Origin: a virus
Lineage: Duplodnaviria > Heunggongvirae > Uroviricota > Caudoviricetes
Reading direction: 5' to 3' (one strand)
DNA length: 38,801 nucleotides
Virus record (IMG/VR): IMGVR_UViG_3300025602_000002
Coordinates: 166,718-205,518 of that record
Below the pieces are notes generated by a model. The model worked only from the letters and a program-made list of their open reading frames with translations. It was not told the origin of the DNA and did no database searches. Positions 5,471-38,000 of the stretch are shown piece after piece. A program made the position numbers and the translations under genes. Within the stretch, counting starts at the first letter, position 1, and each line of letters begins with the position of its first letter.

Positions 5471-5492
5471 ATGTGCTCTCCATTGTTAGGTG

Positions 5493-5564
5493 CAGGGACG
5501 GCAGGACTCGAACCCGCATTGCCGGTTTTGGAGACCGGAGCTCTACCAATTGAACTACGCCCCT
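5493..5564 (-). tRNA. trnW: tRNA-Trp (anticodon CCA)
   Basis: AGGGGCG-TA-GTTC-AATTGGTA-GAGC-T-CCGGT-CTCCAAA-ACCGG-CAAT-GCGGG-TTCGAGT-CCTGC-CGTCCCT-G; full cloverleaf, anticodon at 5531-5529, discriminator G, 3' CCA not encoded. Confidence 0.97.
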
Positions 5565-6189: not shown

Positions 6190-6218
6190 TTTACAAATAA
6201 ATTCGTAACACTTATATT
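6190..6218 (+). promoter_or_regulatory. Sigma70-like promoter for the + strand cluster
   Basis: TTTACA (6190-6195), 17 nt, TATATT (6213-6218). Confidence 0.55.
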
Positions 6219-6258: not shown

Positions 6259-6603
6259 ATGGATAAAGCACAACACGTGTTTATGAAATACGCTGAGCGT
6301 AATAAACGTAAACCTAATCGTCTATTATTAGATTTAGCCCCAGGAGCATTATCTGGGACTGTTACCAGTTTATTGCTTCACCCCTTAGATACCCTACAAG
6401 TTCGTCGTCAGACGGCTCCTCCCTCTCAAAATGTTGACTTTAATAAACCTCCTAAACTTACGAAACCAATAGGTAAATTAAAGGCTTTTAAATCTTTGTA
6501 TAAAGGTTTAGGATTAAAATTGTTACGTAACATTCCAACGTTAGCTATAGGATTTGGTACCTACGGAGTTACTAAAGACTATCTAGACAAAAAATATAAA
6601 TAG
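6259..6603 (+). CDS. Tagged protein with a single mitochondrial-carrier (SLC25-like) repeat
   Basis: Start ATG 6259 after AAGGA; MDKAQHVFMKYAE tag; GALSGTVTSLLLHPLDTLQVRRQT and SLYKGLGLKLLRNIPTLAIGFGTYGVTKDYL match both halves of the carrier repeat. Confidence 0.75.
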   Translation: MDKAQHVFMKYAERNKRKPNRLLLDLAPGALSGTVTSLLLHPLDTLQVRRQTAPPSQNVDFNKPPKLTKPIGKLKAFKSLYKGLGLKLLRNIPTLAIGFGTYGVTKDYLDKKYK

Positions 6604-6611
6604 GAGTTAAA

Positions 6612-8651
6612 ATGGATATTCAATCACCATTAGGAACTGTAGTAGGGTTAGGAGCCTCAGCAGTCCCGTCGATTCCACAACCAAAAAGGCGTACTAAATT
6701 TAGAAAACTTATGAACGCCTCTTTAGTAGGAGCATCAAGTGCTATTTCTACGTTGGTGCCTGGCGCGCCCTTACAAAGTGCAGCAGCGGCGTCATTAGCT
6801 CCGGAAGGGAGAAAGGTGCAAGCAGCTCAAGCAGCCCTTACTGGGTCTATGTTAGGGTCTTTACCTGGGGCGGCACTGTTTACTAGACAATTTTTTGCAA
6901 GTAATAAAAAAAACATAGAAGATTTAAAAGGAAAAACATTCAACGACATAAGCGATGTTACAAAGGCCTATTTAAAAAATCAAAAGCAGTTAGCTAAAAA
7001 TTTTATAAAACAACCAGATTTACCATCAAAAGCTTTTCAATTATTTACTAATAAAATAAAAGGCACCTTAACAAAATTTAAAACATTCAAAGTACCAGCA
7101 GCCGCGTTATTAGCAGGAAGTGCTATAGGTTCTGGCATAGGATACCATAGGAGTACAAATATGAAGAAACAAGGAGAGTTTTCTAAAGCAGAACTATTAT
7201 TTAATAAAACTGCAGGACCGACTGCTGCAAGCGTGGCTGAGACAGGGCAGAAGGTATTAAAAAGAACTAAAGAGTTATTTTCTGGCAATAAGATGAAGTC
7301 TAAGATAGATGCAGCTAAAAAGAGCGGGAAAGAGCTTGACGCTAACGAGGCTGGTAAAGAAATTGTAAAAGTATACGCTACACGAGGTGCGGCGGGTACA
7401 GGCGCAGCAGCTGTATTAGCAGACGCAGTTATAGATAAAAAAGCGGAATATGTATTTTTAAAAGTTGCAATTAATGCGAAGGCATTAAAATTAAAGGCCA
7501 TAACAATTGCCCAGGAAGCGAAAGCAACCTCAGATGCGGTTGTTAAAGGAACTTCAAAAAGAGTAGTGAAAAATAAAAGTCTGGCACCCGTAGATGCCCG
7601 ATGGACCTCTTCTGGAGGTAAAGGAACCGCTGCGAATACTTCGAAATCTTCGAAAGCGTCAGCAGCTTCAACTACTTCGAAATCTACAAAATCTACAAAG
7701 GCTACAACTTCAACTGCTCCGGCAAAAACTGAGCAACCTGCGGCAAAGAAAGGAATAAGTTTAAATGCTAAACTTCTAGGGTTTGGCGCAGGAACAACTC
7801 TCGCAGGAATAGGGATAGGGCGCGCTAGTAAAACTGGATCGGTATCTGCTAGATATTTGGAACTAGTAAAAGGTAGCCGTCTAAAGGGCCTTAAACAAAG
7901 TAAAGCAGATTATATAAATAAATTAAAAACTGTGACCTCTAAACTTCATAAGGATCATCCTAAGTATACGGAACTATTAAAAAATGTAGAAAAAGAGATT
8001 AAAATCGAAACAGCTAAAGTAGTAGGAACAGTAGTAGGAACTCCTACAGCAGCAGCTACCTTAGTAGGCGGAGCTATGTCTTTAAATAAAAAAGCAGAAG
8101 CTGTAATGAGTAAATTAGGTAAAAAGTATCCTTATATAGATTTAGCACATGATCTAGAGTTGTCTAGAATAAGAGAAGAGCTACAAGCGCGAGCGCATGC
8201 TAGAGCCTTACAGGAAAGTCCTTCTGGCAAATGGAATAAAGAAAACGCTCCAGAGTATTCGGCGAGCTCAAAAAAGGAAAGAAGTAAACAATATAGGACT
8301 GCCACAATACCTAAAACAACGGGGGTCGGAGCAGCATTAGGAGCTTGATCAGGTACAAAATGGTTAGGTAAAAATCCTCCTAGTAATTATTGAGCTGTAA
8401 ACCCAGAACCGCTTTCAGTATTAAGAAAAATGAAAGGTTTAGGAAAAAATGTTGCAGTAGGAGCTGTAGCGGGTGCAGCGTTTGGAACAATGATAGCAGC
8501 TGCCGTAGGGAGCGATAAAGCTCAGCGAAAATATTTGAAAGTTAAAGGATTAAGAGGCGGTCAAGATCTTACCAGTAAACAGCTAAAAAAATATGTACCA
8601 GAGGCTTTAACAACGTCTAGATTAATTAATGATATAGACTACGCATCTTAA
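6612..8651 (+). CDS. Large basic Ala/Gly/Lys-rich putative virion protein (679 aa, 2 TGA=Trp)
   Basis: Track ORFs 6612-8348 and 8430-8651 are in frame and separated only by TGA codons; three internal tag copies; several GxxxG hydrophobic segments. Confidence 0.75.
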
Positions 8652-8669
8652 AGAGTGGGAAATAATTAA

Positions 8670-8892
8670 ATGAAAAAACAAGCAGTAAAAGACTTAGTTA
8701 CCGAAGTAAAACATCTGACTCACATGATTGAGGGTAAAAAGGGTTTTAATGTAATGAGAGGTCTCTACGGACCCAACGCAATTGCAAATTTTGCTAAATG
8801 AAAAAAAAGCAAATCCTGGAAAGAAATATAAAGATTATGCTCAGTTATACAAAAAAGCAGAATACATTTTCTCAAAAATAGTCAATGCCTAA
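8670..8892 (+). CDS. Small tagged protein interrupted by a +1 shift at an A8 run
   Basis: ATG 8670 frame reaches TGA 8799 then A8 (8801-8808); the +1 frame gives ANPGKKYKDYAQLYKKAEYIFSKIVNA and ends ATGCCTAA over the next start; unshifted frame ends at 8831. Confidence 0.5.
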
Positions 8893-9427
8893 ATTCTTTC
8901 CAGTACCAAAATTTAAGATAGATCGAGGATTCGATCCAACCCTCATTCAACAAAAAGCTGGATGAGACAATATCTTTTTGCAGGGACGAAAGAACAAAGC
9001 TAAATATAGAGCCTTAATAGCTAATAAATCTATACCATTTATGAGTAGAGAAGTGTTTACTAGGAAACCCCTCCCTAACGTTACTAGGGAAGGTTATAAT
9101 GGGATCTTAACCTCTTTTAAGAAGGTAGCTCAGGTATTTGAGAAGTATGCTAAATATACCTCTTGTAAAATCAAGTTTAAGAAACTTCAAAAACATAAAA
9201 AACCTCTAACTCCAGAAGAGCGCGCGTTAGTGATGAAAAGCAAAGCAGTTTGGAATTTTCATTTTGGTAGAGATGGCAAACGCCAAGCAACTCCGGCTGT
9301 ATGGAAATCGGTACAACCTGATGGTAGAACTATATATGTAACTAATACTCATCGAGCCTTTAATACAGCTCCTACAGTAAAAGGCGCAATTAACAGATAT
9401 CACACATTTATAAAAGGAACAGCATAA
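8885..9427 (+). CDS. Hypothetical tagged protein (180 aa, 1 TGA=Trp)
   Basis: ATG 8885 in frame with track ORF 8978 via TGA 8963; internal KVAQVFEKYA tag; compact C-terminal domain KAVWNFH..TPAVWKSV..YVTNTHRAF. Confidence 0.75.
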
Positions 9428-10149
9428 TGAATAAAGCACAATACATATTTGAAAAATGAGCTTCAACTGCGATGATAAGAGCGGTTAAGGCTAGAAAGAT
9501 CTCTGCAGAAGCAGCGGGAAAAGCTACTCAAACTTTAGGACTTAAGTCTAGATATTTAAAAGATTTGGGCCAGGGAGTTGAAGGGTTGGCACAGTTAAGG
9601 ACTTCCGCAAAACACCAACTTCAAGTTGCTAAACTCTATGACCCTAAGGGAGGGCTTTCGAGTAAAGAGGTATTAAAAGAAAAAGTTCGTACTTTTAAAA
9701 CAATGTCAGGCAAAGGCAATTTTGCCAAGTATTATGGAAAAGATCCTAAACGACCCATCACTTTCCACGAGTATAGTCCAGGAACTGCCGGAATTGGGAG
9801 CTCTATAAAACAAACTCTTCTAACAAAGGCACAAGCTACACTGAGAGGTGTACCTATGGCCGACGTAGTTAGAAACCCAGGAAACATTCAGGGTGGAAAA
9901 ATAATTGACTTCCTTCCCGCAGGTAGAAGGGGGCGCAAAGCTCTACAAACAACCACTGTCGGGAAACAGACTGAGGGATTTAAAAAAGCGGTTAAGAGTG
10001 AAGTGTGGAAGGCTCTGTCTTTAAAGAAAAAACCAGCTGCAGCTATAGAAGGTATTAAGTACCAAGCTATAGATTTTGGAAGTAAGTTATTAGAGAGCGG
10101 TATGACCCGAAATTCTAATATACCTAAAGCAATATACGGTAAGAAATAA
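9427..10149 (+). CDS. Tagged atypical protein-kinase-like protein
   Basis: TAATG start, MNKAQYIFEK(TGA=W)A tag; LGQGVEGLAQL, VAKLYD, TFHEY, DVVRNPGNI, KIIDF. Confidence 0.65.
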
Positions 10150-10150
10150 A

Positions 10151-11551
10151 ATGGATAAAGCCCTACACGTATTTAATAAGTATGCTGCCGATCAGCCCCA
10201 CCAAGCTAGAGTATTAAAGAAGCTTGAGAAGACTGATCAAATGTTGTTATATCACGGCTTAGGTTCTGGTAAAACCTATACGGCATTACGTGCAGGTGAA
10301 AAGTTTAAGAAACCTGTAACAGTTATAGGCCCTGCAGCTTTAAAACATAATTTTCCTAAAGAGAGGCTTAAGCATAAAATAAAAGGGGAAGGTTCTTATT
10401 ATTCTTATAATAAACCTCCAACAAAAAATGTTTCAAAAGACGTAGTTGTATTCGATGAAGCCCACAGAATGGGTAGAACAGAGTCCCAACGTTCACACTA
10501 TCCAGATAAAATAAAGGGTAAGAAAACCCTGCTTCTATCAGGAACTCCTATTAGAAATGAACCTGCAGAATTAATACCGCTTTTACGGGGTTTAAATATT
10601 AATATAGGTAGAGATAAAAAAAGATTTAACCAGGCGTTTATTCAAGAGACTAAACAAAAACCTGGATTTTTTGCACGAGTATTTAAGGGTATTAAGCCTG
10701 GAACGGTAAAACGTGGGAAAAATTTAGGAGTTCTTAGAAAAGCTCTACGAGGCAAAGTAGATTATCATGCCCCAACTAAAGATAAAAATTATCCTTCAGT
10801 TATAAATGAGCGTATAGAAACTACAATGTCTAAAAAACAACAAGCAGCTTATAAAATGGTTATGAAAGAAGATCCTGATTTAAAGTATAAAATTAGGCAT
10901 GGAATAGCTCCTTCTAAAACAGAATCATCTCGAATGAATGCATTCTTAGGAGCGGCACGCCAAGTATCTAATCGTCCGGGCAAATACAATTTAAGCGCTA
11001 CAGAGGCCGATGCTCCTAAACTAAATAGAGCGATGTCAGAAATTTCTAAGAGGCATAAAGCTAATAAAAAATATCGTGGAGTAACTTACTCTACATACTT
11101 AGGTCACGGAGTGGACCCAATGGCCAAAAGACTTAAGAGAACTAAGATACCTTTTGGCACCTTTACAGGAAGACAGACTGACCTAGAAAAAGCTGATGTA
11201 GTAAAGAAATATAATTCTGGCAAGATTAAACACTTACTTATATCTGGAGCGGGAGCAGAAGGGCTTGATTTAAAAGGAACAAGGCTTCTTCAAATATTAG
11301 AGCCTCATTGGAATGAACCTACTCTAAAACAAGTAAAAGGTAGAGTAAATAGATTCAAGTCTCATGAACATTTAAAAAAACAAAATCGAAATATAACGAT
11401 TCAAACATATATTAATAAGCCACGTAAAACTAGATTCTTACGTAGACAACATGCGGGAACTGATGAGTATCTAGAATTGCTATCAAAAAATAAACAAAAT
11501 CTTGTAAATGATTTTACTAAAGTATTAAAGGAAGTAGGAAGTGATGGATAA
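10151..11551 (+). CDS. Tagged superfamily 2 (SNF2/NPH-I-like) helicase/ATPase
   Basis: LLYHGLGSGKT (I), VFDEAH (II), SGTP (III), GAEGLDL (V), QVKGRVNR (VI); N-terminal MDKALHVFNKYAA. Confidence 0.9.
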   Translation: MDKALHVFNKYAADQPHQARVLKKLEKTDQMLLYHGLGSGKTYTALRAGEKFKKPVTVIGPAALKHNFPKERLKHKIKGEGSYYSYNKPPTKNVSKDVVVFDEAHRMGRTESQRSHYPDKIKGKKTLLLSGTPIRNEPAELIPLLRGLNINIGRDKKRFNQAFIQETKQKPGFFARVFKGIKPGTVKRGKNLGVLRKALRGKVDYHAPTKDKNYPSVINERIETTMSKKQQAAYKMVMKEDPDLKYKIRHGIAPSKTESSRMNAFLGAARQVSNRPGKYNLSATEADAPKLNRAMSEISKRHKANKKYRGVTYSTYLGHGVDPMAKRLKRTKIPFGTFTGRQTDLEKADVVKKYNSGKIKHLLISGAGAEGLDLKGTRLLQILEPHWNEPTLKQVKGRVNRFKSHEHLKKQNRNITIQTYINKPRKTRFLRRQHAGTDEYLELLSKNKQNLVNDFTKVLKEVGSDG

Positions 11552-11996
11552 AGCTGCGCAAGTATATAATAAATATTTTTATAAGTTTGGAATGGCGAGA
11601 GTACCCTCGTTACAAAGTTGGGATGACGTTATTAGCCAGGTAAAGAGCCATACCCGCCTTAAACCAAAATTGGACCGCGTAACACGAATGAAGTCAGTTA
11701 CGTCTAATAGGAATGAAGGAAAAGATATAATAGAGAAAGTATTACCAGAAATAGATATAGTCAAAACTAAAATGAATATTGGAGATAAAGGGGTGGTACA
11801 AACTAAAAACCATCAACTTATATTTCACAGAGCTAATCCGGATTGGGGAGAAAGCGGTGATATGCATATGTCAACATATTATACAAAAGACATGCCCATT
11901 CAAAAAAGGTTTGGTGAAAAACTAATTAATTTTACTGATGCTAGTTTAAAAAAGAAAATAAAAGACAAATATCCAGAATTAGAGATGAATTGGTAA
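11544..11996 (+). CDS. Hypothetical tagged protein
   Basis: MDKAAQVYNKYF start overlapping the helicase stop. Confidence 0.75.
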   Translation: MDKAAQVYNKYFYKFGMARVPSLQSWDDVISQVKSHTRLKPKLDRVTRMKSVTSNRNEGKDIIEKVLPEIDIVKTKMNIGDKGVVQTKNHQLIFHRANPDWGESGDMHMSTYYTKDMPIQKRFGEKLINFTDASLKKKIKDKYPELEMNW

Positions 11997-12000
11997 ACTA

Positions 12001-13284
12001 GTGCAAAATAAACCCTCTATATCAGACCACTATCAATATGGTAAACGTCTTCTTAGGCATAAGGCCTTTATGATTAGGCCCGGCAGGACTATAGGAGCCC
12101 CATACGGGACGCTTTTAGCTCATGACCTCTCTAAGTTCCGCCCAAGCGAGTGGAAGCCTTATGTAGCCTATTGGCAGGGCCCTAAAGGTATTACTGGTAC
12201 GAAGGATCCAGAAGTAACTAGAAAATTTAGAGAAGCAGCAGCGCTTCACTACAAACGAAACCCACATCATGCCCACAAACTTGGTTTGGTCTCTGAAAGA
12301 AAAAATAAATTAGAAGCAGTAACTGATTGGTATGCGACCTCAAAAGCTAACCAAGCTAATACAAAGGATTTTCCTAGTTTCGGCACCTGGGTGAGAACTC
12401 AAAGCCCAGCAGCTAGAAAGAACTTAATAGATTTAGGAATAAACACGGAGAAATTAGCAATGCAAGATAAAGTAACATTAATATTTAAGAAATATGCAGA
12501 AGTTCAGGATTTAAAAGCTAAAATCAGGAGCGGAGTAACAAATATAAAAAATAATGAAGGAGTGGCAAAAGCTACCGCTACCGTAAAAGCTATAGATAAG
12601 AAAATTAATTGAAGTAAAGTAGATAACGTGGCTACAGGGTTAGCCGTAGGAGCGAAAGGTTACCATCTTAAAACCGTACATTCACAGGTGAAGGCGGGTA
12701 AGGCCGCTCAAAAGGAAATGGCAAAACAACCATTTATGAAGGACGTTCCCGGGTATGTAAACTCTAAAATGGGAGACAGTGTAAGCGTTATTCACGATAA
12801 AGCCAGTTCTAAAAAATGAGTTAAGAAAAATGTAGGTAGAGGACCAGGAGGTTTTATATCTCATCAAATGAATAAAATTATATTAAAGCAACCTAACGCG
12901 GCAGCTACTATGGGTAAACACGGCCCCGCAGTTATAATTGGATCAAAAGGGTCTTCTCAAAAAATTATAGATCACGAACTAGGACATATCGCGGATTTTA
13001 AGAATAAGGGTCTTACTTCTCCAAAAAAATTAGGAAAACATTCAAGAGGAAAAGCAACAGATGTTTTTCATAATCTTGTGGGCAAGCCTGAAAAAACAAA
13101 TAGATTTAAAATGGAAATCGATGCTTGGGATAACGCTGGAGTACCTGCAGACGACGCTCTTAGAGTTAAGGCGTTAAAAACTTATAGGCAACAAGCAGTA
13201 GGGGGAACTAGATCTGGGATAGCTAATTTAGCTACAACTGCTTTTAAAGCGTTCACCACTGCAAAAAAGAATAAGATAATATAA
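12001..13284 (+). CDS. DUF5662-like HD-type domain fused to HExxH zincin-like domain (427 aa, 2 TGA=Trp)
   Basis: Track ORFs 12001-12612, 12628-12819 and 12868-13284 are one frame joined by TGA; LLAHDLSKFRPSEW...HYKRNPHH; internal DKVTLIFKKYA tag; DHELGH...EIDAW. Confidence 0.75.
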
Positions 13285-14018
13285 TGGATAAAGCACAGTA
13301 TATATTTGAAAAATTAGGAAAAGACTCTTCAGCTACCAGAGATTTTTTCGCAGGAGTAGAGCCTACCGGACGTTGGACATTTGAAAGCGCTATTAATAAT
13401 AAAGAAAATCATAAAAGGCATATGGGTACAGCGGTTGCAGGAGGTTTTATAGGGAGCTCTGTAATTACTCCAGCAGTGTTGTCTACTATGGTAAAAGGGC
13501 CAAGCGCCTCTAGACAGGCCGGACCCGGCATAAAGGCTAAAGCCCATGCAGTAGCTTCTGAAGCTTTTAAACCATATAAAGTATTAGGGCAGTCTCTTCA
13601 TGCGCGTAGTAAAATTAATAAAGCATTAAAAACTAAATCTAAAGTATCTAAAAAAGATTTTTCTGTTATTCTGGATACATTAAAAAACCTGTCTATAAAG
13701 GATTTAGAGAAAACAAAAGGTCCTTCAGAAAAAGGCAAGGTATTATGAAAAAATAAACGAGGGGATACTATAAAATCAAAAACTAACTTTAAGGATGTAA
13801 TTAAGGAAACATTTACTAGCGCAAGAGCTAATCCAAAGATACTGAAATCAGTAAGACACGGGTTAAACCGAGGTATAACTTTAATATCTTCTGGAATATT
13901 AGCGGCAGGAGCTATAGGAGGGGTAGCAGCAGGAGCTCAATATAATTCTGGATTAAGAGCGCGCAAGATGCTTGTTCCAGGGACTACAAAAAAATCTAAA
14001 ATTTTGGAGACAAATTAA
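13284..14018 (+). CDS. Tagged basic protein with hydrophobic Gly/Ala segments (244 aa, 1 TGA=Trp)
   Basis: MDKAQYIFEKLG; readthrough of TGA 13746 ends at a TAA overlapping the next ATG. Confidence 0.8.
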
Positions 14019-14746
14019 TGAAAGATAAAGCAACTTACATATTTGAAAAAATAGCTAAAACAGCGTTAGTAAGGGCCTTTAATCGTGGAACATTGTCGCT
14101 TAACAACGTAAAACGTATTTCACAGAGCTTACAGTTGAAACCAAGAACTTTAAGAAAGGCTGGTCGAGGCAATGAGGCGCTCGTACAACTAAGAACCTCT
14201 CCGAAACATGGAGTAGAAGTGGCCAAAATTCATGACACGACTAGTCCAATGTTTAGCCGTAAAGCCTTTAATACTAAAATACAAGTTTCAAAAAAACTGA
14301 ATAAATCACCACATTTTGCTAAGTTTCACAGAGCCGATAAAAAAAAGAAAATAACATACCAACAATATAGTGTTCCGAGTGAAAAAACATTTGACGAGCA
14401 CGTAAAACTTATAAGAAGTGCACGTAAAGATTCTAGAAAAATAATTGGTAAAACCGTGCAAGATCTTCACTCTTCAAATGTTGCTGGAAATAAAGTAATT
14501 GATTTTTTATCTCCAGATATAGCAAAAAACAGATCCACTGAACTTGGCAAGATATTTAGTAAGGGAAGTAAAAAAAAGTATAGAGCTAGAAAGCATATGA
14601 AAACCTTATCAGGACAGGCTAAACATGATTTTTTTAATAGACCCTCTTCAGAAAAGTCTACATATGATAAATGAACAGTTCGCATGTCTAAGTACAAAAA
14701 AAATAAAATAACAGATAGTAACTTACTTAAAAAGGTATATGGATAA
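14018..14746 (+). CDS. Tagged atypical protein-kinase-like protein, paralogue of 9427 gene
   Basis: MKDKATYIFEKIA; AGRGNEALVQL, VAKIHD, TYQQY, DLHSSNV, KVIDF; 1 TGA=Trp. Confidence 0.7.
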
Positions 14747-14750
14747 AAAT

Positions 14751-15359
14751 ATGAAAGATAAAGCAACAATAGTATTTGAAAAATTAGCGGGTAGATCCGT
14801 AGAAAGTTTAGGACTGATTCCTGAAGGTATGACTGTTAAACAATGGAACGACGACTATAATGCTGGCTATGAAAAATACAAAAAAATTCATGGTAAAAAG
14901 CTACACGCATATGATAAGCAATATAGATCGACCCATACATATCCTAAAGTTAGTAAGCAGCAGTTCAAAAAGAATAGGCGAAGAGCAGTATTAAACGCTG
15001 TTGGAGTGGTGGTGGCGGGGGCTCTTACAGGCGCAGCAATACTTCGTAAGTATGCAGGATCAAGAGGGTTAAAACGCCTTAATAGAGTATATAAGAGTGT
15101 TGACAATTCTCGTAGCTTAGCATTTAGACAATCAGAAAAAAATTGAAGAAACTACGATAACCATACTACTAAGAATACTGAAAAAATTCTAAGACTTGGT
15201 AGAGTATGAGACCGTTCTGCTACAAAAACAAACATACTTGATAAGAAGACAGAGCTTGCAGGAAATAAATTATATAGAAAAAAACAAGAAGGGAAACTTA
15301 GACATGTAAAAGGCATGATGAAAACTATTAAGAATGGTGATGAAGTGGGATTAGCCTAA
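14751..15359 (+). CDS. Tagged basic protein with one hydrophobic helix (202 aa, 2 TGA=Trp)
   Basis: MKDKATIVFEKLA; readthrough ends at a TAA overlapping the next ATG. Confidence 0.8.
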
Positions 15360-15961
15360 TGGATAAAGCAACAATAGTATTTGAGAAACTAGCAATCTCT
15401 ACAAGACATATAAACAAGGCTCTAACAAAGTCCAAATTACAAAATACTAAAAATTTGTGAAACGTACTTGATCCTAAAAGGCAGAAATACAGAAACCCAA
15501 CACGACTAGAATTAAAGGCTGACTCTCTAATTCACAAAAATAATACTAATCTACGAAAAAGAAAAGCTGGAAGATTTGACCGAACACAAGATCTTGAACT
15601 TATGAATAGTATAAAAACTGCTGAAGGCCTAACTAAATCTCAATTACAATTTTCAGGGGTAACTGCGGCTACTCAAAATAAAAGACTTCTTCCAGGAAAT
15701 ATAGCTACAAAGGCACAAAAGGCAGATATTACCACTATTAAATTACAGAATAAGGCAGCAGTTAAAGCGTCACAACCTTTTTTACTTAAGAAAACAGCAA
15801 AGTTTATACCAAAAAATCTTAAGGCTTATAAACTGAAGAATAGTATAAGTAAAGCTAAAATTTCAGATAAGAAAAATACTATACTCCTACAGAAAGAAAA
15901 AAATAGTGCAGCAGCAAATCGCATAGAGATGGCGAAGAATTGAGCTAAACGATACAAGTAG
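15359..15961 (+). CDS. Tagged Lys-rich protein (200 aa, 2 TGA=Trp)
   Basis: MDKATIVFEKLA at 15359, in frame with track ORF 15602; TAG stop. Confidence 0.8.
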
Positions 15962-16946: not shown

Positions 16947-17777
16947 ATGAAATACCCATTTATAAAATATGTAGAAACGCTAGTTATGCGTAAATTACCC
17001 CCAGAGGATGTAAAGGCGGGCTTAGATATCTATAATCTTGAAATGCCTTTGTCAGATATCATGGTTATTAGAGAAGGACTAGAGAAGGCTTTTCCTGAAT
17101 ATTTTAAATCTCCTGAGATTGTGCCTCCTTCTGAAGTATTAGAACAAATAAACATAGAAACAATGTTTGCATATTTATATAAAGTATATACTCCTAAAAG
17201 CGTTAAGGGAGTTAAAGGTTCTTTTGAAGTAGTAAATGATATGCTTATGTATAGATTAATTACATCACTAGCGCTTGCGAAGATAACAGAAGAAGATATT
17301 GAGCTTATAGTTAATGGGAAATTTAATATCGACTATGAGCATGAAGATATAGAATCTTTCTTACACTACTTCTTTGATGTACAAGGTTGAACAATTGCTG
17401 ATAAAAAAGCATTAGTGCGAAAAACCAAAGAACATTTTTTACAACACGCATATAGAACTGCTCTAGAACATGATAAAAATTACTTAATTTGAAAACTTGG
17501 AGCATCTCCTGATAAATCTTTTGACTCCATGTTAAAGGATATGATGAATGATGCGTATTATAATTTTACCGAGAGATCAACAATTGACCCAGAACTTGCA
17601 CAAAAATGAGGAGCGTTAGCTGTTAAGCTGGCAGACAAATTAGAAAAATTAGATAAAGATAAAAAGAAAAAAGAAGACTTCTTTGCCGAAGTAACGTTTG
17701 AAGTAAAACAGCACAGAGCTGGACATGTAAAAGATTCTGACGAACCCAAACATATCCTGGATTTGATGAATGAGTAA
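16947..17777 (+). CDS. Hypothetical protein (276 aa, 3 TGA=Trp); possibly packaging-related
   Basis: Open to TAA 17775 once TGA is read through; overlaps the next ATG (ATGAGTAA). Confidence 0.75.
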
Positions 17778-18561
17778 TCAATACATTAAAAAACAAGCAG
17801 GCATCTTAGATGTGCCACAAGATACTTTAGCTAGCGATATATGGACTACTGAGGGAAAACTATATCCCCACATTAGGGATCAAATTTTAAATAGGTTATA
17901 TGCTTTTGTGCCTAAGAAAGTGGTACGAAGTGTGGTTATTTTAGGATCCATTACAGGATACAAATATACTGAAACGTCGGACATAGATATAAACGTTACG
18001 ATTGAGCCTTATGGTGACTATTTTCATCAAGCTAAGAAAGAAGTTAATGGCTATCTTGCACAGGGTACCCGACATCCTGTAAATTATTTTGTTATGCCCC
18101 ATACTTCAAAATTATCTAATTGAGAAAATTCTACGTTTGGAGTATTTGATGTAATTTCAAATGTTTGAGCAAACAACCCACCCGCTAGAGCTACAGTTAG
18201 AGACCCGCATAAGCAATTTAATCAAGAATTTATTATAGCAAAAATGGTTGCTGGACATTATAAAAGACTTGTTTTAGCTTTCCATAAAGACAAAAAAGAT
18301 TTAGAGACTCTTATAGCATTACCAGATTCTTGACATAAGTGATGGTGGATTAGAAATAAAAAAAAGGAAATAAATGAAGATAGACAAGATCTCATTAATT
18401 TTTCTCAAAATCTAGATAAATCTAGAAAATTAGAGTATTCTTTAGGGTGAGGAACCCCGAGGAATAATTATAGAAACGTAGTATATAAATTTATCGAACA
18501 CGGACCTCATGGCGAGTTATTCGAAAAATTTAAAGAAATCAAGCTAAACAATGGCAAATAA
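17770..18561 (+). CDS. Pol-beta-superfamily nucleotidyltransferase (263 aa, 5 TGA=Trp)
   Basis: LGSITGYKYTETSDIDINV (GS...DxD) and GVFDVISNV(W); N-terminal KQA motif. Confidence 0.8.
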
Positions 18562-18778
18562 GATACAGAAGAAAAGTGGACCTAAAGATTTTGGGTTAAA
18601 GGTATACGTACACAACCAAGATCAAAGAGGAATTAGTGATGCACTAAGACGCTTAAGAAGCAGATTAGATACAGAAAATATCATGGAAGAAGTGAGATGA
18701 AGACAGCATTATGTTAAGCCTAGCCAAAGAACCAAACATAAAAAGAAAAAATCTAATCCAAGATGTCTCAAAAGATAG
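18551..18778 (+). CDS. rpsU: Ribosomal protein bS21 homologue (75 aa, 1 TGA=Trp)
   Basis: LKVYVHNQDQRGISDALRRLRSRLDTENIMEEVR(W)RQHYVKPSQRTKHKKKK matches the bS21 pattern VxV...ALRR...E.R.R.HY.KPS. Confidence 0.8.
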
Positions 18779-20301
18779 CAATATCACGTAGCGAATTTGC
18801 AGAATCATTTTTCTGGCTAAATGGCGCCCCCTTCTCTTTAGATGATTACCCCCATATGCGACGTGTGTGGGATACTTCGCCTAAAAAGAAAGTTATGCAA
18901 TTTAGCAGACAGACGGCTAAATCCACTACAATGGCGGGAATGGTAACAGCTAATTCTGGTATGATTCCTTTCTTTAAAACTTTATACGTAGCTCCTACGA
19001 TTACTCAAGCTAAGATATTCAGTCATGATAGGGTGAAACCTTTTTTAGAAGGTAGCCCTTTTATGAAAGATCACTATATGAATACTTCTCTAGTAGATAA
19101 TGTTCACCATAAAGAATTAGCTAATGGATCTTTAATGCATATAAGATATGCGCTGCTTTCTGCTGATAAATTACGTGGATTTTCTGCGGATATGAATATT
19201 TTCGATGAGTGTCAGGACATGCTTAGTGAAATTATTCCTGTGGTACAGGAAACTATGACACACTCTGATTATAAATGGATAGTATATTCTGGTACCCCAA
19301 AACGTTCTAGAGGAACTTTAGCTGATTTATGGCATAAATCTACTATGTGCGAATATATAGTTAAGTGCCAAAGTTGTAATCATTGAAATATTTTAGATGA
19401 AGAAAACATTGGGGATTTCGGAGTTATATGTAAGAAGTGTGGTAGACCTTTAGATATTAGTGTAGGAGGAGAATGAGTTTCTACATATTCTTTAAAAAAT
19501 CCTACAGCTATGGAAGGGTATAGAGTTTGCGCTTTACACTTTGCAAAAGCACCCTGGGTTAATTGGCAGGAAGATATATTAGATAAACAAAGGCATTGGT
19601 CTAAAGCTTTTTTTCACAATGAAGTATTAGCGTTAGAATATGATGCTGGAGTATCACCTGTTACAGAATTTGAAATAGATAGAGCCAGTACCGGCCCGTT
19701 AATGGAAGAGGATCCTAACGAGGAACAGCGTAATTATCCTAGTGTATTAGCTATCGATTATGGCCCAGTTAATTCAGAAAAATCTTATACCGTAGCAGTA
19801 GTAATGCAACTTCGCTCTAATAAATTACGAGTAGTTTATGCTAAAAAGTTTATTGGAAAAGAAGCCGATTATAGTTTTATCGTTCCAGAAATTCCTAAAA
19901 TAATGGCTAAGTGAAATTGCGTTAGTGTAGCTTCAGATTATGGAATGGGCGAAGCGCCAAATTCAGAACTCAGAGCTAGAATAGGTTATGAAAAAGTAGT
20001 AGCATTTCAACATTCCGGTACCCAGAAAAATAAAATTCAATGGAATGACAAGATGCCCGCCTACACTTTAAATAGAACTAAAGTAATGACTGAATTCTTT
20101 GAAAACATTAAAAATTTACGAATAGAATTTCCACATACAGTATCAATGGATTCTTTTAAAGAAGACATTATGAATATACAAATTGACTATGACGAAGAGC
20201 GAGGATTTATGAAATATATTAATATAGGTCCAGATGATTTTGCCCATGCTTGTATTTTTGGAACTATAGCTTGCGAACTAATGTTTGGGGCAGTAAAATA
20301 A
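18763..20301 (+). CDS. terL: Terminase large subunit, GpA-like (512 aa, 3 TGA=Trp)
   Basis: SRQTAKST Walker A, FDECQD Walker B, SGTP, CQSCNH(W)...CKKC Zn motif, LAIDYG and DDFAHA nuclease motifs; three track ORFs in one frame. Confidence 0.9.
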
Positions 20302-21886: not shown

Positions 21887-23608
21887 ATGATAGAAAAACG
21901 CGCAGAATACTTTTACGGAGACAATAACTCTGAGGTGTTTACCCTTATCGGTAAGGGAACCATGGAGAAAACTGCGTCGTATTCAGAAGAGTTAGTAGAT
22001 TATATTAATTCTTTAAAAAAGCGTGTTGACAAAGTATATGCTTTAGTAAATGCTTTATCTGCTGGAGAATTTTATAGCTCTAATAGAAATGGTGATCATT
22101 TTCCAGAAAAGGCCTTAAAACAATATCATAAAACATTTGAAGCTTTAGGTCATGTGTACAGACACCATGTAAATAAGGATCCAAGAAAATCGTTAGGTAA
22201 GGTTTTATTTTCACATTATAATCCTACAATGCATCGAGTAGAATTAATATTAGAATTAGATTCTAAAAAAGGTGCAGACGTTATTACAAAAATGCAAAAA
22301 GGAGAATTACCATTTTGTTCTATGGGAACTAAAGTTCCTTTTGACATATGCTCCATTTGCGGAAACAAAGCTCAAACGAGAGCTCAATATTGTGACCACT
22401 TAAAGTATCGTATGAATAATATTTTATCCGACGGTAGAAAAGTTTACGCAATAAATACAATGCCGAAATTTTTTGATATCAGTGTTGTAACTATCCCTGC
22501 CGACAGGACTGCTAGTTTTATTAGGCTTCTTGAAGCAAAATCATCTAGTAGACCTCGTGTTATAAAAATTGCAGAGGAATTACCAAAAGAAACAAAACAG
22601 CTTTTTAAAGCTGCCGGGTTTGAACCAAGAGCAGAAATTAGAAAAAAAGTAGACGTTAAAATAGAGATTGCGGACCAAGATCCAAAAAATATCCTATTAC
22701 ATACTCAGAAAAGACTTTCAGATGAAACAATCGAAAAGCTTTCTAAGTATAATATCGACGAGATACTTTCTACAATGATGGCTTTACGAATTGCACCAGT
22801 TAGAGAAGATTTTCAAAAATTGGCTGCGTACGTTTTTGGACAAAAAGAAGCGGCAGATAAATGGGCTGAAAATGGAGTTTGTTTTATTGTAGATAAGGAC
22901 ACAGTCCCTACAGAATTACCCAATGTAACTTTTGATAATTTTAATAGCAAGATCGCAGGGGTGCTTTTGAAGTCAGTCCCAGATATGTCTCTTACTAAAC
23001 AATGAGTATTAGCAAGAGGAATACATAAAGTAGGATATGAGTCTCAAGCAACAACCTATCCAAGTAATGTTTCTAGAGAACGTAGCGGAATAAAACGTTT
23101 CTTATTTACGCAGAAAGAGGAACCACCTGTTTCAGCACATAGAAATCCAGTAGTTCCATTAGGACTTCTAGGAAGCTTATATTACGGGTATGCGAAGGTA
23201 TTTAATAATCCATCGATTAATAAATTTAGATCGTTTGTAGTTAAATATCCTTGGTTACTTCCAGTATTAGTGGGAGCGGGAACGGCCGGTTCTTTAGCCA
23301 GCCAAAGTGTAGCATTTAATAAAGAAGCCTCTTTAGGAGCTGTGGACAAATTCCTAATGTCTTCTTTAATAACAGTACCAACCGCCTACTATTACGCAGG
23401 TAAACAGGAGAATAAAGCTAGAAAAGGTGTACCTTTAAAACCAACAGAGAACTTTGCCAGAAAACATCCATTACTCGCAGGACTAGTGGGGGCCACTGTA
23501 GCAACAGCTATTAAGAGACCTAAGTTTTTTAAAACAGCAGAGTTATTATCAGAAATAAGTCCGGAAGATTTGGATTTATTGTATAAAGATATCATAGGAG
23601 GGCAATAA
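21887..23608 (+). CDS. Prohead maturation protease with long C-terminal extension (573 aa, 1 TGA=Trp)
   Basis: NRNGDHF, HH, CSMG (putative catalytic Ser), CSICG..YCDHL, FFDISVV; in frame with track ORF 23270 through TGA 23003. Confidence 0.75.
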
Positions 23609-24199: not shown

Positions 24200-24505
24200 A
24201 TGGGAACACTATTAGACACATATAAAGCTATTCAGGAAACTGAAGCTGAAAAAGTGGCCGAAGAAGTTACTGAAGAAGTAGTTGACGAGGGTCAAGAAAC
24301 TTTACGTAAGTACGCTGAGGGCGCTGAAGGCTTATTAGCTGCAGAATATGGTGAAGATTACGACGAAAATGACGTAATAAAATTAGCTGGAATGATGATT
24401 GATTACGATGTGGAACAAGAAACAATGCTTGAAAAAGTAGCTGAATTGGAAGACATGGGTACAATTATAGGACAAGCTATTAAAGCTGAGTTAGCTAAAG
24501 ACTAA
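24200..24505 (+). CDS. Acidic head-assembly protein
   Basis: 101 aa; EKVA, KYA and KLA motifs. Confidence 0.75.
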   Translation: MGTLLDTYKAIQETEAEKVAEEVTEEVVDEGQETLRKYAEGAEGLLAAEYGEDYDENDVIKLAGMMIDYDVEQETMLEKVAELEDMGTIIGQAIKAELAKD

Positions 24506-25325: not shown

Positions 25326-26249
25326 ATGGAATATTCAGCTAGTACGCTAAATGAGTTATTTGTAGAAAAGCTTAATTCCCCTGCGGGACTTGAGAAAGTC
25401 GCTATGGAAGGATCAGCTTTCGTTAGACAAAAACTACGTGAAGTTTCTTTTGCAAGAAAAATAATAAATCCACAATATGTAACTAAAGCTGACTTGACAA
25501 GATCTGTCAATCACGACGGCCTAGTTAAAATCGTGGACATCGAGCCTGACTCAGAAGCCATGGCACTGAACATGCGCGGACAGCCAAACCTTAGATACGT
25601 AATGGGCGATCGATTCGAGATACCCCTGTATCAGGTTAGTTCTGAAGACTTTCAGAAGACTGAAGAAGAGCTGTTGGCCTATGAAATGCCACTGACTGAC
25701 ATAATTGAGAAGAACTCAGTACTCGATTTACAACGCATTGAAGATGAAAAATTCTTAGAAGGTGTAGACGCGCTAATGCCCGTTGCAAACGCTAAGACCG
25801 GTTCTTATAGAGCATCCGGCAGTGAAACAGGTGTGATTGAAAAATCAAGCCTAAAAGAACTGTTTGACGTTTTAGACGGAGCGGAATTACGTTGCGATAC
25901 CCTATTAATGGATTCTACAATGTATAACAGATTATTCTTGTATGATGCATCAACTATTGGTGACTCAGCAGGAAGCGAAATCTACATTAATGGTTTCACT
26001 TACAATACGCTCTTCGGACGTAAAGTAGTTGTTTCCAATAAAGTGTTCAAACAGGACGGGTCAACTGCACTGTTACAGAACAAGATCTACGCTTTTGCAC
26101 CACAAGAATTCTTAGGACAATTCTTAGTATTAAACGATACTAAATTCTGGATCGAAAAGAAAAAGAATATTATCACATGGGCCGTGTACGAACACATTGG
26201 CATCGGATTTGGTAACTCCAAAGCGCTTGCTAAACTTACACTGTCGTAG
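25326..26249 (+). CDS. Major capsid protein (probably HK97 fold)
   Basis: 307 aa, AAGGAGG RBS, last gene of protease-scaffold cluster, followed by a strong terminator; EKVA motif near N-terminus. Confidence 0.75.
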   Translation: MEYSASTLNELFVEKLNSPAGLEKVAMEGSAFVRQKLREVSFARKIINPQYVTKADLTRSVNHDGLVKIVDIEPDSEAMALNMRGQPNLRYVMGDRFEIPLYQVSSEDFQKTEEELLAYEMPLTDIIEKNSVLDLQRIEDEKFLEGVDALMPVANAKTGSYRASGSETGVIEKSSLKELFDVLDGAELRCDTLLMDSTMYNRLFLYDASTIGDSAGSEIYINGFTYNTLFGRKVVVSNKVFKQDGSTALLQNKIYAFAPQEFLGQFLVLNDTKFWIEKKKNIITWAVYEHIGIGFGNSKALAKLTLS

Positions 26250-34631: not shown

Positions 34632-34992
34632 TGGAGAATTAATAGATAAGCTATCTATTCTTCAATTAAAAACTGAGAATTTTACTGACCCAGAAAAGAT
34701 TAAAAATGTACAAACAGAATTTGAGGCTTTACAACATAGCGTTGTAGAGCTATTGAATTTCTCATTGGATTCTGAAAGTTATATGAATCTTTATAATTGT
34801 AATGCAGAGCTATGGGATATAGAGGACCAACTGCGTAGAAAAGAACAATTAAAAGAGTTTGATGAGGAATTTATAAAATTAGCGCGAGCAGTGTATTACA
34901 CTAATGACACTAGAGCTAATTTAAAAAAAATAATTAACAACGAAACCAACTCTATGTTTATTGAGGAAAAAGAATACGTAAACTATAACTAG
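34612..34992 (+). CDS. DUF6165-like protein
   Basis: MKIEISNGELIDKLSILQLK...NAELWDIEDQLR...LARAVYYTNDTRA..K..IN. Confidence 0.75.
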   Translation: MKIEISNGELIDKLSILQLKTENFTDPEKIKNVQTEFEALQHSVVELLNFSLDSESYMNLYNCNAELWDIEDQLRRKEQLKEFDEEFIKLARAVYYTNDTRANLKKIINNETNSMFIEEKEYVNYN

Positions 34993-35006
34993 TTTGGAGA
35001 CCCCGC

Positions 35007-38000
35007 ATGTCAGGACAAATAAAAGCCAAACAAATATCGGATGTATATAGCCAATCACAGGCTAATGCAACATTTTCAGCAAAATCCCACAACGCATCCG
35101 CCGCACCACCAGCGTCCCCAATAACTGGACAGACTTGGTGAGATTCATCTAATGAAGTATTAAAAACATGAACAGGTAGTACATGAGTAGCCTCTGAAGG
35201 TACCTCAGGTACTTCTGGCTCAAGCGGAGCTAGCGGTGCTAGCGGTACTTCCGGATCAAGCGGAGCTAGCGGTGCTAGCGGTACTTCCGGAACTAGCGGT
35301 ACTTCTGGATCAAGCGGATCAGCAGGTTCAAGCGGATCTTCGGGGACTTCCGGAACTTCTGGAACTTCAGGATCAAGCGGAACTTCAGGATCAAGCGGTA
35401 CGAGTGGTACAAGTGGTACGAGTGGTACTTCAGGTTCAAGCGGTTCAGCAGGTTCAAGCGGTTCAAGCGGTACGAGTGGTACTTCTGGATCAAGCGGGAC
35501 TTCAGGAACTTCAGGATCAAGCGGATCATCAGGATCAAGCGGAACTTCGGGAACTTCTGGTTCAAGCGGGACTTCAGGAACTTCTGGTTCAAGCGGGTCA
35601 GCAGGATCAAGCGGTTCTTCCGGAACTTCCGGATCAAGCGGTACGAGTGGAACTTCAGGATCTTCTGGAGAGAAAGGAGTTACTGGAGATTCAGGATCAA
35701 GTGGATCAAGCGGAACCTCAGGCTCTTCTGGAGCTAAAGGAGACGCTGGAACGAGTGGTTCAAGCGGAACTTCTGGTTCAAGCGGAACTTCAGGATCAAG
35801 CGGTACTGGCGGTACTTCTGGGTCTTCTGGAGGAGTTGGAACGAGCGGTACTTCAGGATCAAGCGGAGCAGCAGGAACTTCAGGTTCAAGTGGAGATACG
35901 GGGGTGCCCGGAGCTTCAGGGTCAAGTGGTTCTTCCGGAACCTCAGGATCAAGCGGTACGAGTGGTACTTCGGGGTCAAGTGGAACTAGCGGTACTAGTG
36001 GTACTTCGGGTTCGAGTGGATCAAGCGGTTCAAGCGGTTCAAGCGGTACGAGTGGTACTTCAGGTTCAAGCGGTACGAGTGGTACTTCAGGTTCAAGCGG
36101 ATCAAGCGGTTCAAGTGGATCAAGCGGTACGAGTGGTACTTCCGGAACTAGCGGAACTTCGGGATCGAGTGGAGCAGCTGGAACTTCAGGAACAAGCGGT
36201 TCAAGCGGAATAGACGGAACTTCCGGGTCAAGTGGTACGAGCGGTATAGGCGGAACTTCCGGATCTTCAGGAGGTGCAGGTACAAGTGGTACTTCTGGAT
36301 TAAGCGGTACGAGTGGTACGAGCGGTTCTTCTGGGACTTCCGGATCAAGCGGGACTTCTGGATCAAGCGGTTCAAGCGGTTCAAGCGGCACAAGCGGTAC
36401 TTCCGGTTTAAGCGGAACGTCAGGTTCAAGCGGTACAAGTGGAACTTCAGGATCAAGCGGAACTTCAGGATTAAGCGGAACTTCAGGATCAAGCGGTACA
36501 AGTGGAACTTCAGGTTCAAGCGGATCAGCAGGATCAAGCGGTTCAAGCGGATCAAGCGGATCAAGCGGTACGAGTGGTACTTCGGGGTCAAGTGGAACTA
36601 GCGGTACGAGCGGTACTTCGGGCTCAAGCGGGGATAGTGGTACGAGTGGTACTTCAGGGTCAAGTGGGACTTCAGGAATTAGCGGTACTTCAGGGTCAAG
36701 TGGGACTTCAGGAATTAGCGGTACTTCAGGATCAAGCGGAACTAGCGGTACTAGCGGTACTTCTGGGTCAAGCGGGACTAGCGGTACTAGCGGTACTTCT
36801 GGGTCAAGCGGGACTGCGGGTACAAGCGGTACTTCTGGATCAAGTGGAACTAGCGGTACAAGTGGAACCTCAGGGTCAAGCGGTTCAAGCGGTTCAAGTG
36901 GAACTAGCGGTTCAAGCGGAACTTCAGGAACTTCTGGAACTTCAGGTTCAAGCGGAACTAGCGGTACGAGTGGTACCTCTGGATCAAGCGGTTCAAGCGG
37001 TTCAAGCGGTGTAAGCGGCACTTCCGGATCAAGCGGTACGAGTGGTACTTCAGGTTCAAGCGGTTCAGCAGGTTCAAGCGGTTCAAGTGGAACTTCAGGA
37101 ACTAGCGGAACTTCAGGATCAAGCGGAACCTCAGGAACTTCAGGATCAAGCGGTACGAGTGGAACTTCGGGATCTTCTGGAGAAAAAGGAGTTATTGGGG
37201 ATTCAGGATCTAGCGGGTCAAGTGGGACCTCGGGCTCTTCTGGAGCGAAAGGAGACGCTGGAACAAGCGGTTCAAGCGGAACTTCCGGAACTAGCGGAAC
37301 TTCAGGTTCAAGCGGTACTGGCGGTACCTCTGGGTCTTCTGGAGGAGTTGGAACTAGCGGAACTTCAGGATCAAGCGGAGCTGCAGGAACTTCCGGTTCA
37401 AGCGGTACTTCCGGTTCAAGCGGAACTTCCGGAACTAGCGGAACTTCGGGTTCAAGTGGAACTTCCGGAACTAGCGGAACCTCAGGATCAAGCGGTATAA
37501 GTGGAACTTCAGGATCAAGCGGTTCAAGCGGTTCAAGCGGATCAAGCGGAACCTCAGGATCAAGCGGTACAAGTGGTACGAGTGGTACTTCAGGTTCAAG
37601 CGGTACGAGTGGTACAAGTGGTACTAGCGGGTCGTCTGGAACTAGCGGGTCAAGTGGAACTTCCGGTTCAAGTGGTACGAGCGGAACCTCAGGATCTTCT
37701 GGAGAAAAAGGGGTTACGGGGGATTCAGGTACAAGCGGCTCAAGTGGAACTAGCGGTACAAGTGGAACTTCAGGATCAAGCGGAACTAGCGGTACGAGTG
37801 GTACTAGCGGGTCATCTGGAACAAGCGGATCAAGCGGAACTTCAGGAACTTCTGGAACTTCAGGATCAAGCGGAACTTCAGGAACTTCTGGAACTTCCGG
37901 GTCAAGCGGAACTTCAGGAACTTCAGGAACTTCAGGTTCAAGTGGATCTGCAGGATCAAGTGGTTCTTCCGGAACTTCAGGATCAAGCGGTACAAGCGGT

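Follow-up and report, generated by a model that had tools for sequence, protein, structure and literature searches.

A short peptide tag recurs throughout an array of 11 closely packed late genes at positions 6259-15961 of the window, which is the whole 38,801-nucleotide (nt) stretch of DNA that was analyzed and corresponds, on the reverse strand, to positions 818-39618 of one 141,836-bp virus record (genome G000). The array belongs to a large uncultured aquatic phage with a genomic G+C content (GC) of 35%. The tag has the form M(K)DKAxx(I/V)FxK(Y/L/I/W)(A/G); it starts eight genes, and six further copies are internal or C-terminal. The proteins of the array are probably virion proteins, and the reading of the tag that is argued for here, that it is a capsid-loading propeptide ending in a site for the prohead protease, is about evenly balanced between right and wrong. 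The last five residues of the tag form a core motif that is common to proteins of the head interior, which is new here. Read with TGA as tryptophan (genetic code 4), the array is made up as follows.

6259..6603, + strand: tagged gene (tag 6259-6294) with a single mitochondrial-carrier repeat; 114 amino acids (aa), isoelectric point (pI) 10.3; Pfam Mito_carr, 1.2e-14
6612..8651, + strand: 679-aa basic Ala/Gly/Lys-rich protein, pI 10.2, with one hydrophobic segment and no N-terminal tag
8670..8889, + strand: small open reading frame (ORF) changing frame (+1) at an A8 run; TGA at 8799
8885..9427, + strand: 180-aa basic protein with an internal tag at 9116-9151 (residue 78)
9427..10149, + strand: tagged gene (tag 9427-9462) with a kinase-like domain, paralog of the 14018 gene
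10151..11551, + strand: tagged gene (tag 10151-10186) with a SNF2-type helicase, 466 aa
11544..11996, + strand: tagged gene with the degenerate tag MDKAAQVYNKYF (Y for F, F for A), 150 aa; position-specific scoring matrix (PSSM) score 19.5
12001..13284, + strand: DUF5662 domain (Pfam, 2e-16), internal tag at 12463-12498, and a C-terminal part
13284..14018, + strand: tagged gene (tag 13284-13319), basic protein with two hydrophobic segments, 244 aa
14018..14746, + strand: tagged gene (tag 14018-14056, MKDKA form) with a kinase-like domain
14751..15359, + strand: tagged gene (tag 14751-14789), basic protein with one hydrophobic segment
15359..15961, + strand: tagged gene (tag 15359-15394), very basic protein, 200 aa, pI 10.7

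The original prediction had named the eight N-terminal tags, the one at 11544 being degenerate, as well as internal copies in the genes at 6612 (three), 8885 and 12001 and in the frame-shifted 8670 ORF, and every one of these copies was present. Those in the 6612 gene lie at nt 7179-7214, 7434-7469 and 8085-8120 (residues 190, 275 and 492; PSSM scores 24.4, 26.1 and 23.1), and the copy inside the 12001 gene (residue 155) still starts with Met. The downstream frame of the 8670 ORF ends in a tag (8848-8883) that is two residues from the stop. Between the 8670 ORF and its +1 frame, at 8790-8810, is an A8 run with an in-frame TGA (AAA TGA AAA AAA AGC), and the frame change stems either from an error in sequencing the homopolymer or from an RF2-style +1 shift where the TGA is decoded slowly.

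The cargo proteins that follow the tags had been described as unrelated in every case. All-against-all BLAST of the array proteins bore this out except for a single paralogous pair, 9427 and 14018 (32% identity, 8e-29); the remaining similarity was restricted to the 11-13 residues of the tag. The carrier repeat and the helicase were recognized by Pfam, the latter with both SNF2-rel_dom (4e-17) and Helicase_C (3e-10), and the helicase also matched positions 699-1100 of the 1881-position profile phrog_62 (1e-35). The kinase assignment of genes 9427 and 14018 is a lead only, from an Atlas score of 0.89 (RIO/OspG-like) for the 14018 product and a DxxxxN...IDF motif, and the domain described as metallopeptidase-like, in the C-terminal part of the 12001 gene, is zincin-like by its HELGH motif alone, with no profile match. 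The remaining cargoes are lysine-rich, some with Gly/Ala-rich hydrophobic segments. The pI of all 11 array proteins was 9.6-10.7, as opposed to 4.1-4.4 for the scaffold-like proteins. Most cargoes are encoded by separate genes, with fusions only in the genes at 6612, 8885 and 12001.

Chance is excluded as the source of the recurrence, because a DNA pattern for the tag (AARGCN8TNTTYNNNAAR) had 10 matches in the window when 0.22 were expected (the largest count in a shuffle was 2), all of them on the + strand between 6265 and 15388. A peptide regular expression applied to the six frames of the 141.8-kb genome had 14 matches, all in real + strand frames: 13 within 6265-15365 and one beside the portal gene, where the tag heads a 92-aa basic protein encoded two genes upstream of the portal gene. 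With a position matrix for the full 11-residue tag, exactly 12 proteins of the genome scored at least 18, and the best of the 124 early proteins scored 6.7. The codons at conserved tag residues vary synonymously (GCA/GCC/GCT/GCG, GTA/GTG/ATA, TTA/CTA/ATA and AAA/AAG) and the x positions vary freely; the synonymous variation indicates that selection acts on the protein. When 71 cargo-distinct tagged sequences were pooled, conservation was 2-4 bits per position over residues 0-11 and fell to less than 0.8 bits, the background, from residue 12 onward. The first half of the tag (M-D-K-A-x-x-hydrophobic-F) is cargo-specific, not being present in head proteins, and is as well conserved as the core, M, D, K, A and F each carrying 3.9-4.2 bits. 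In charge the tag is close to neutral (mean +0.4), with basic sequence afterwards, and as a helix it is strongly amphipathic, with a moment of 1.55 as opposed to 0.93 for shuffled tags.

The tag was searched for elsewhere, with a back-translated pattern, in IMG/VR, in metagenome contigs, and in 596 Gb of bacterial and archaeal genomes. It was located in 20 IMG/VR loci and 24 metagenome contigs, and it is carried by at least 71 different cargoes in low-GC phage contigs. Nearly all of the loci had a GC of 29-39%, many of these low-GC contigs encoding several small tagged genes in tandem, and the few loci at 44-65% GC carried a single copy or none. A bacterial or prophage origin was rejected: the 596 Gb held two matches, single copies on contigs of metagenome-assembled genomes with 62-63% GC, which look like chance. 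Clustering of 610 ORFs from the 44 tag-bearing loci showed that the recurring untagged neighbors were the terminase, the portal, two portal-adjacent proteins, an actin-like protein and a morphogenesis block, and that no family of modifying enzymes recurred beside the tagged genes. The actin-like protein of G000 is a 326-aa member of the actin family (Pfam Volactin, 3e-70) at about 132612-133592 of G000:C1 (window -93973 to -92993, negative positions being those before the window start; locus L102:4116-5093, minus strand), three genes upstream of the portal gene; its gene is kept in the three relatives described next and in eight tag-bearing contigs.

Three whole relatives, G001, G004 and G005, were compared with G000. 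The 210-kb genome of G001, with a capsid protein 69% identical to that of G000, carries a syntenic array with 11 tags and a further tag next to the portal gene. Its cargo set retains the carrier repeat, the helicase and DUF5662, and a J-domain protein and other basic proteins are new in it; the carrier-repeat ortholog is also tagged, and the J-domain (DnaJ, 1.6e-8) is in the ortholog of the 14751 gene. G004 has five or six tags, with DUF5662 tagged N-terminally and the helicase untagged. In G005, where the capsid protein is 63% identical and the head module is the same, no tag was found, and a de novo search revealed no alternative N-terminal peptide common to its proteins. The tag-bearing and the tag-less genomes had every head and portal gene in common, so that presence and absence gave no candidate for a tag receptor. 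The zincin-like domain of the array was rejected as a processing enzyme, since the domain is absent from G001 with its 11 tags and present in G005 with none. The one-repeat carrier-like protein is a conserved small gene of the clade and lies directly upstream of the portal-adjacent genes in several relatives, both in tagged form (L136, L150) and untagged (G005 17251-17610, next to the portal gene). Within the tag array of G001 there is also an untagged ligase-like gene (180387-181703, or L100:387-1703) with weak matches to the LigD 3'-phosphoesterase domain and the DNA-ligase OB domain, about 2e-6 each, which recurs in four tag-bearing contigs and in G004.

Judged from these alignments, related phages exchange, join and separate their cargo modules at the tag, which is thus a seam. 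This follows from three observations: the homology between the DUF5662 genes of G000 and G001 (residues 3-166) ends exactly at the end of the internal tag; the domain after the internal tag of the 8885 gene is encoded as a separate, N-terminally tagged gene in contig L009; and two G001 proteins end in a tag (180316 and 182875) where the next gene begins with one.

The head genes, and further late genes elsewhere in the genome, share the core of the tag, at the sites listed here.

21887..23608, + strand: probable prohead protease fused to a C-terminal domain (phrog_18299, 7e-11; Pfam S78, 0.008); core sites at residues 26-30 (nt 21962-21976) and 309-313 (nt 22811-22825), with K28 and A30 invariant in 16 sequences
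24200..24505, + strand: acidic scaffold-like protein, pI 4.1; core sites at nt 24302-24316 and 24428-24442
25326..26249, + strand: major capsid protein, 307 aa (phrog_2522; distant match to PDB 6wkk, phage G gp27, 3e-9); core site LEKVA (context G-L-E-K-V-A) at residues 22-26, nt 25389-25403, with K24 invariant and A26 nearly so in 24 sequences
Window -15461 to -13272: 729-aa protein; six loose core matches, about 0.4 expected
Window -95351 to -94281: 356-aa acidic protein near the portal; two conserved core sites, three matches where about 0.2 were expected
Window -92235 to -90370, about 92 kb before the window start: portal gene; core site in the C-terminal region

The core was defined as hydrophobic-[EDQNS]-K-hydrophobic-A, and expected counts were taken from shuffled proteins. 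In G000 the observed and expected numbers were 4 and 0.4 for the head module and 11 and 1.1 for other late proteins, as opposed to 2 and 2.2 for early proteins and 0 and 0.2 for tail genes. Late-strand proteins of the four genomes together contained 75 cores (13.0 expected) and early-strand proteins 11 (11.8 expected), an over-representation of about 4-6-fold in the late proteins of these related genomes, and 57 of the 75 late-strand sites were outside tags. Control motifs gave 24 against 12.6 expected when the core was reversed, 6 against 6.2 when K was changed to R, 11 against 11.6 for K to E, and 28 against 14.7 for A to S. The core sites were conserved in position in the orthologs of all four genomes, including tag-less G005. 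The abundance of KxA in the head proteins, to which the original prediction had pointed, was also found (40 against 16.6 expected), but it is a crude count made up mostly of scaffold repeats, and the five-residue core is more informative. The densest clusters of cores were in the 729-aa and 356-aa proteins, which are of no known family and are conserved in all four genomes; both are candidates for heavily processed head-core proteins.

The match of the protease to Pfam S78 was 16.8 bits, below the cut-off of 21, the protein is 41% identical to gp222 of Salmonella phage Arash, and no match to the PDB was found by sequence. A Foldseek search with an AlphaFold model of the protease domain gave T4 gp21 (probability 0.97, TM-score 0.47 by target) and herpesvirus proteases as the nearest structures, all of these fold matches being weak (TM-scores 0.26-0.47, E-values about 0.02-0.05, all above 0.01). 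Residues 1-29 are disordered in the model and the fold starts directly after A30, so that the first core site ends the leader of the protease. In the model of the capsid protein, a long helix near the N-terminus begins with LEKVA, and the second protease site is helical too; neither setting speaks for or against cleavage. Prediction of a complex between residues 1-330 of the protease (16-sequence alignment) and the first 41 residues of the 14751 product had a score of 0.01, which is uninformative either way.

A link to virions comes from the nearest cultured relatives by capsid protein, which are phage Arash (35% identity) and three Vibrio phages (33-35% for the group). Arash has the same order of helicase, two conserved head genes, protease and capsid protein, and K-x-A occupies the corresponding positions of its capsid protein and protease and is repeated several times within the scaffold-like gp225. 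The Arash helicase gp217 aligns over its full length with the tagged helicase (33% identity, 5e-71), the alignment starting after the 16-residue leader of the tagged helicase. In the proteome of purified Arash virions, Gp217 ranked among the most abundant proteins, with 38 unique peptides and 1148 spectra, as compared with 1333 spectra for the capsid protein, and RNA polymerase subunits were also abundant (PMC10585845). A 2019-aa late protein of G000 (window -79730 to -73671, + strand) is homologous over its C-terminal 560 residues (3e-52) to Arash gp216, an abundant virion protein with the annotation RNA polymerase beta' subunit (PMC10585845), and this homology suggests a packaged RNA polymerase in this phage clade. 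No match to DUF5662 was found in Arash or in Vibrio phage D69.

From the tag, its modularity, its genomic company and the common core, we infer packaging, docking, cleavage and ejection along the following lines. The array would encode internal proteins of the virion, which would be packaged and probably ejected. Each would carry a 12-residue amphipathic, near-neutral M-D-K-A-x-x-(V/I)-F-x-K-(L/I/Y)-A ahead of a strongly basic, unrelated cargo. The first, cargo-specific half, DKAxx-hydrophobic-F, would dock the cargo into the assembling prohead, and the last five residues would be what the assemblin/gp21-like prohead protease recognizes, cutting after Ala. Once assembly was complete, the protease would cut off the tag and would also split fused cargoes wherever they have an internal tag, and the basic cargo would remain with the DNA and be delivered into the host along with it. 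Cleavage after K-x-A, taken by itself, is given slightly less than an even chance.

The capsid-targeting role in the original prediction is partly supported, by a portable module that acts at the protein level, by the company of late head genes, by the core shared with head proteins, and by an ortholog of the helicase that is abundant in virions. The C-terminal copies and the untagged orthologs show that an N-terminal propeptide on each cargo cannot be the whole account. Several findings weigh against a loading propeptide. Tags at or near C-termini (8848 in the window; 180316 and 182875 in G001) are in places where propeptide removal makes little sense. The helicases of G004 and Arash (gp217 has no tag leader) and the carrier-repeat protein of G005 are untagged, and G005 is tag-less despite the common head module; these relatives indicate that the tag is dispensable for the clade and possibly for packaging. 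The second core site of the protease and the site of the capsid protein are inside helices in the models rather than in exposed linkers. Several cargoes have membrane-type segments, the carrier repeat among them, which sit awkwardly with packaging in a capsid and may indicate that the proteins are bound for a membrane. Finally, the Arash virion proteome lists 116 proteins (PMC10585845), so some of its detections may be carry-over.

Of the other explanations, the likeliest, although it is still judged unlikely, is that the tag is never cut and is instead a docking or bundling helix, through which the tag and the core would bind the head-interior proteins (scaffold, protease, portal tail, capsid N-arm and cargo) to a common hub or to each other. 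The position of the tag in the chain would then be irrelevant, which suits its N-terminal, internal and C-terminal copies, and the multiply tagged 6612 product would be a cross-linker. The high helical moment of the tag, the helical setting of the capsid-protein and second protease sites in the models, and the conservation of the core in the tag-less relative all agree with such a role. However, 12 residues are few for a stable bundle, conservation ends abruptly and exactly at the small residue (A/G), the invariant K and A where the leader of the protease meets the fold look more like a processing site, and the known analogs, T4 and the phiKZ-like phages, pair targeting with cleavage.

It is a less probable explanation that the tag is a cleavage linker and nothing else, left from a polyvalent injected protein that was broken into genes, with packaging achieved by other means such as charge attraction between basic cargo (pI about 10) and acidic scaffold (pI about 4). 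Internal tags at the joints between modules, the break in homology between relatives at the tag end, cargo that is free in one phage and fused in another, and SNF2 and zincin modules, which are typical of polyvalent proteins, are all as this explanation would have them. Yet the five-residue core would suffice for cleavage, whereas the cargo-specific first half is equally conserved and is absent from head proteins, and where the product of a separate gene begins with the site, cleavage would free nothing but the tag.

A leader unrelated to virions, read by a modifying enzyme in the manner of a ribosomally synthesized and post-translationally modified peptide (RiPP) or by a membrane, secretion or compartment route, with the proteins acting in the cell late in infection, has if anything a slightly poorer prospect. 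It would account for the membrane-type segments of several cargoes, including the carrier repeat. However, the tag differs from RiPP-like leaders in that no maturase family is recurrently encoded beside the tagged genes of the 44 loci, where the neighbors are portal, terminase and head genes; the zincin does not follow the tag in G001 and G005; the tag is near neutral, unlike cationic membrane-binding helices; the core is common to head proteins; and the helicase ortholog is virion-associated in Arash. An element at the nucleotide level, either a recombination or cassette-exchange site or an enhancer of translation initiation with the peptide as a by-product, would fit the exchange of modules at the tag and the A-rich codons after ATG, but it is very improbable, being largely refuted by amino acids that are kept while synonymous and x positions vary freely, by internal and C-terminal copies that serve no start codon, and by the lack of matches on the other strand.

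The loading propeptide favored here has a well-known counterpart in principle. The capsid targeting sequence (CTS) of T4 IPI, IPII, IPIII and Alt (Mullaney and Black 1996, as presented in PMC5694885) is a stretch of 10-20 residues that ends in the motif of the gp21 protease and is the only element common to the internal proteins (PMC3012670; PMC5694885). In both phages, a short N-terminal peptide is the sole element shared by unrelated, basic and hypervariable proteins encoded with head genes, it ends in a motif that capsid and scaffold proteins also have, and the set of cargo differs between related phages. The two peptides have no sequence similarity, however, and T4 is cut after Glu (L/I-x-E), whereas the motif here ends in K-hydrophobic-Ala. 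The phage also differs from T4 in type, with a capsid protein that resembles those of phage G and Arash and a protease that has S78-type matches and a fused C-terminal domain. Here, moreover, tags are internal and C-terminal as well, a helicase, kinase-like proteins, a J-domain and a carrier repeat are among the cargoes, and function is deduced from sequence. By comparison of sequences, the tag would be like a CTS in its proposed working but is not a member of the CTS by homology. The principle is therefore known, and what is notable is the head-wide motif, the unusual cargo, and the internal and C-terminal tags. The original prediction had stated that no description of this tag was known, and literature searches agreed, finding none of the tag motif or of a K-x-A rule, although the T4 CTS principle is textbook knowledge.

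Other systems share parts of this arrangement. In phages phiKZ, 201phi2-1 and SPN3US, proteins of the head interior, including the protease, also have one short cleavage motif, and the virions carry enzymes, including RNA polymerase, that are ejected with the DNA (PMC5694885, PMC10052503). Their propeptides are mostly long with no common tag, the cut is after Glu (A/S/G-x-E), and processing was shown by mass spectrometry, whereas processing here is deduced. Among the polyvalent proteins that are packaged in heads (Iyer, Burroughs, Anand, de Souza and Aravind 2017, PMC5512222), no modules are commoner than SNF2 ATPases and zincins. Like phage P1 Dar proteins, these proteins resemble the array in having an SNF2 ATPase, a zincin-like HExxH (putative in the array) and unrelated effector modules, delivered with the DNA as is proposed for the array, and in being shuffled, fused and split (PMC5512222). 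They differ in combining 2-15 effector domains per polypeptide, whereas the array consists mostly of separate genes, each tagged, with no MuF or other known head-anchoring domain and no methylase paired with the helicase. The cargo-loading peptides of encapsulins are likewise short and direct diverse cargo into a shell of the HK97 fold from either terminus, but encapsulin systems have no portal, DNA or protease, their peptide motifs are unrelated, and the cargo is kept inside; in this phage, terminase, portal, protease and tail genes are present. The herpesvirus assemblin-scaffold fusion is cleaved after Ala at its release and maturation sites, with the consensus (V/L/I)-x-A/S. Like assemblin, the phage protease is fused to a scaffold-like C-terminal part and is proposed to have Ala at P1, the residue before the cut; the structural match is weak (TM-scores 0.26-0.47) and the herpesvirus consensus is without Lys.

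The array lies within a recoded part of the genome. From about position 6200 rightward in the window, all genes are on the + strand and TGA is a sense codon. In-frame TGAs at 9457, 12610, 12817, 13746 and 15458 join neighboring ORFs, and one 1970-aa ORF of the recoded block contains 23 of them. The tenth tag codon of the 9427 gene is TGA where other tags have Y, L or I, which fits TGA as Trp. Recoding of TAG as Gln was rejected: the ORFs were not merged by reading through TAG and were merged by reading through TGA. The genome record also encodes a tmRNA and 28 tRNAs, which include tRNA(UCA) and tRNA(CUA). A tRNA-Trp(CCA) gene is encoded at 5492-5564 on the minus strand, in the leftward arm that uses the standard code, beside the divergent region where the recoded block begins.

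Downstream of the array are two further features.

17770-18561: 263-aa conserved protein just upstream of the terminase, with a weak nucleotidyltransferase (Polbeta) match
18763-20301: large terminase

The 263-aa protein was among the commonest neighbors of tagged genes in independent contigs. At the right end of the window, about 3.8 kb (34958-38801) consists of imperfect 9/18/36-nt repeats with a unit of approximately GGAACTTCAGGATCAAGC and a GC of 53%, as opposed to 35% for the genome, and is open in several frames on both strands. The ORF at 35007-38801 in a + frame encodes Gly-X-Y triplets rich in Ser/Thr and resembles a giant collagen-like fiber protein that extends out of the window.

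The broadest form of the proposal is that, across a widespread clade of large aquatic phages, a portable docking half joined to a Lys-hydrophobic-Ala protease site loads exchangeable proteins into the head and frees them for injection, and that the same five-residue code governs maturation of the head interior; this is possible, although on balance it is doubted. If it were true, an S78/assemblin-like phage protease that has Ala at P1 would for a first time have a rule written in sequence, and with it there would be a candidate cleavage code for a poorly characterized class of prohead proteases. The cargo would include a helicase, small kinases, a J-domain protein and a one-repeat membrane protein like the mitochondrial carriers. 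Nature would then have provided, in addition to the T4 CTS, a second protein-loading tag, which might be tried for filling capsids with foreign proteins. A simple sequence rule would suffice to list, from metagenomes, the proteins that an uncultured phage clade injects, and injected kinase-like, chaperone-recruiting and carrier-like effectors would act in the host before the expression of any phage gene.

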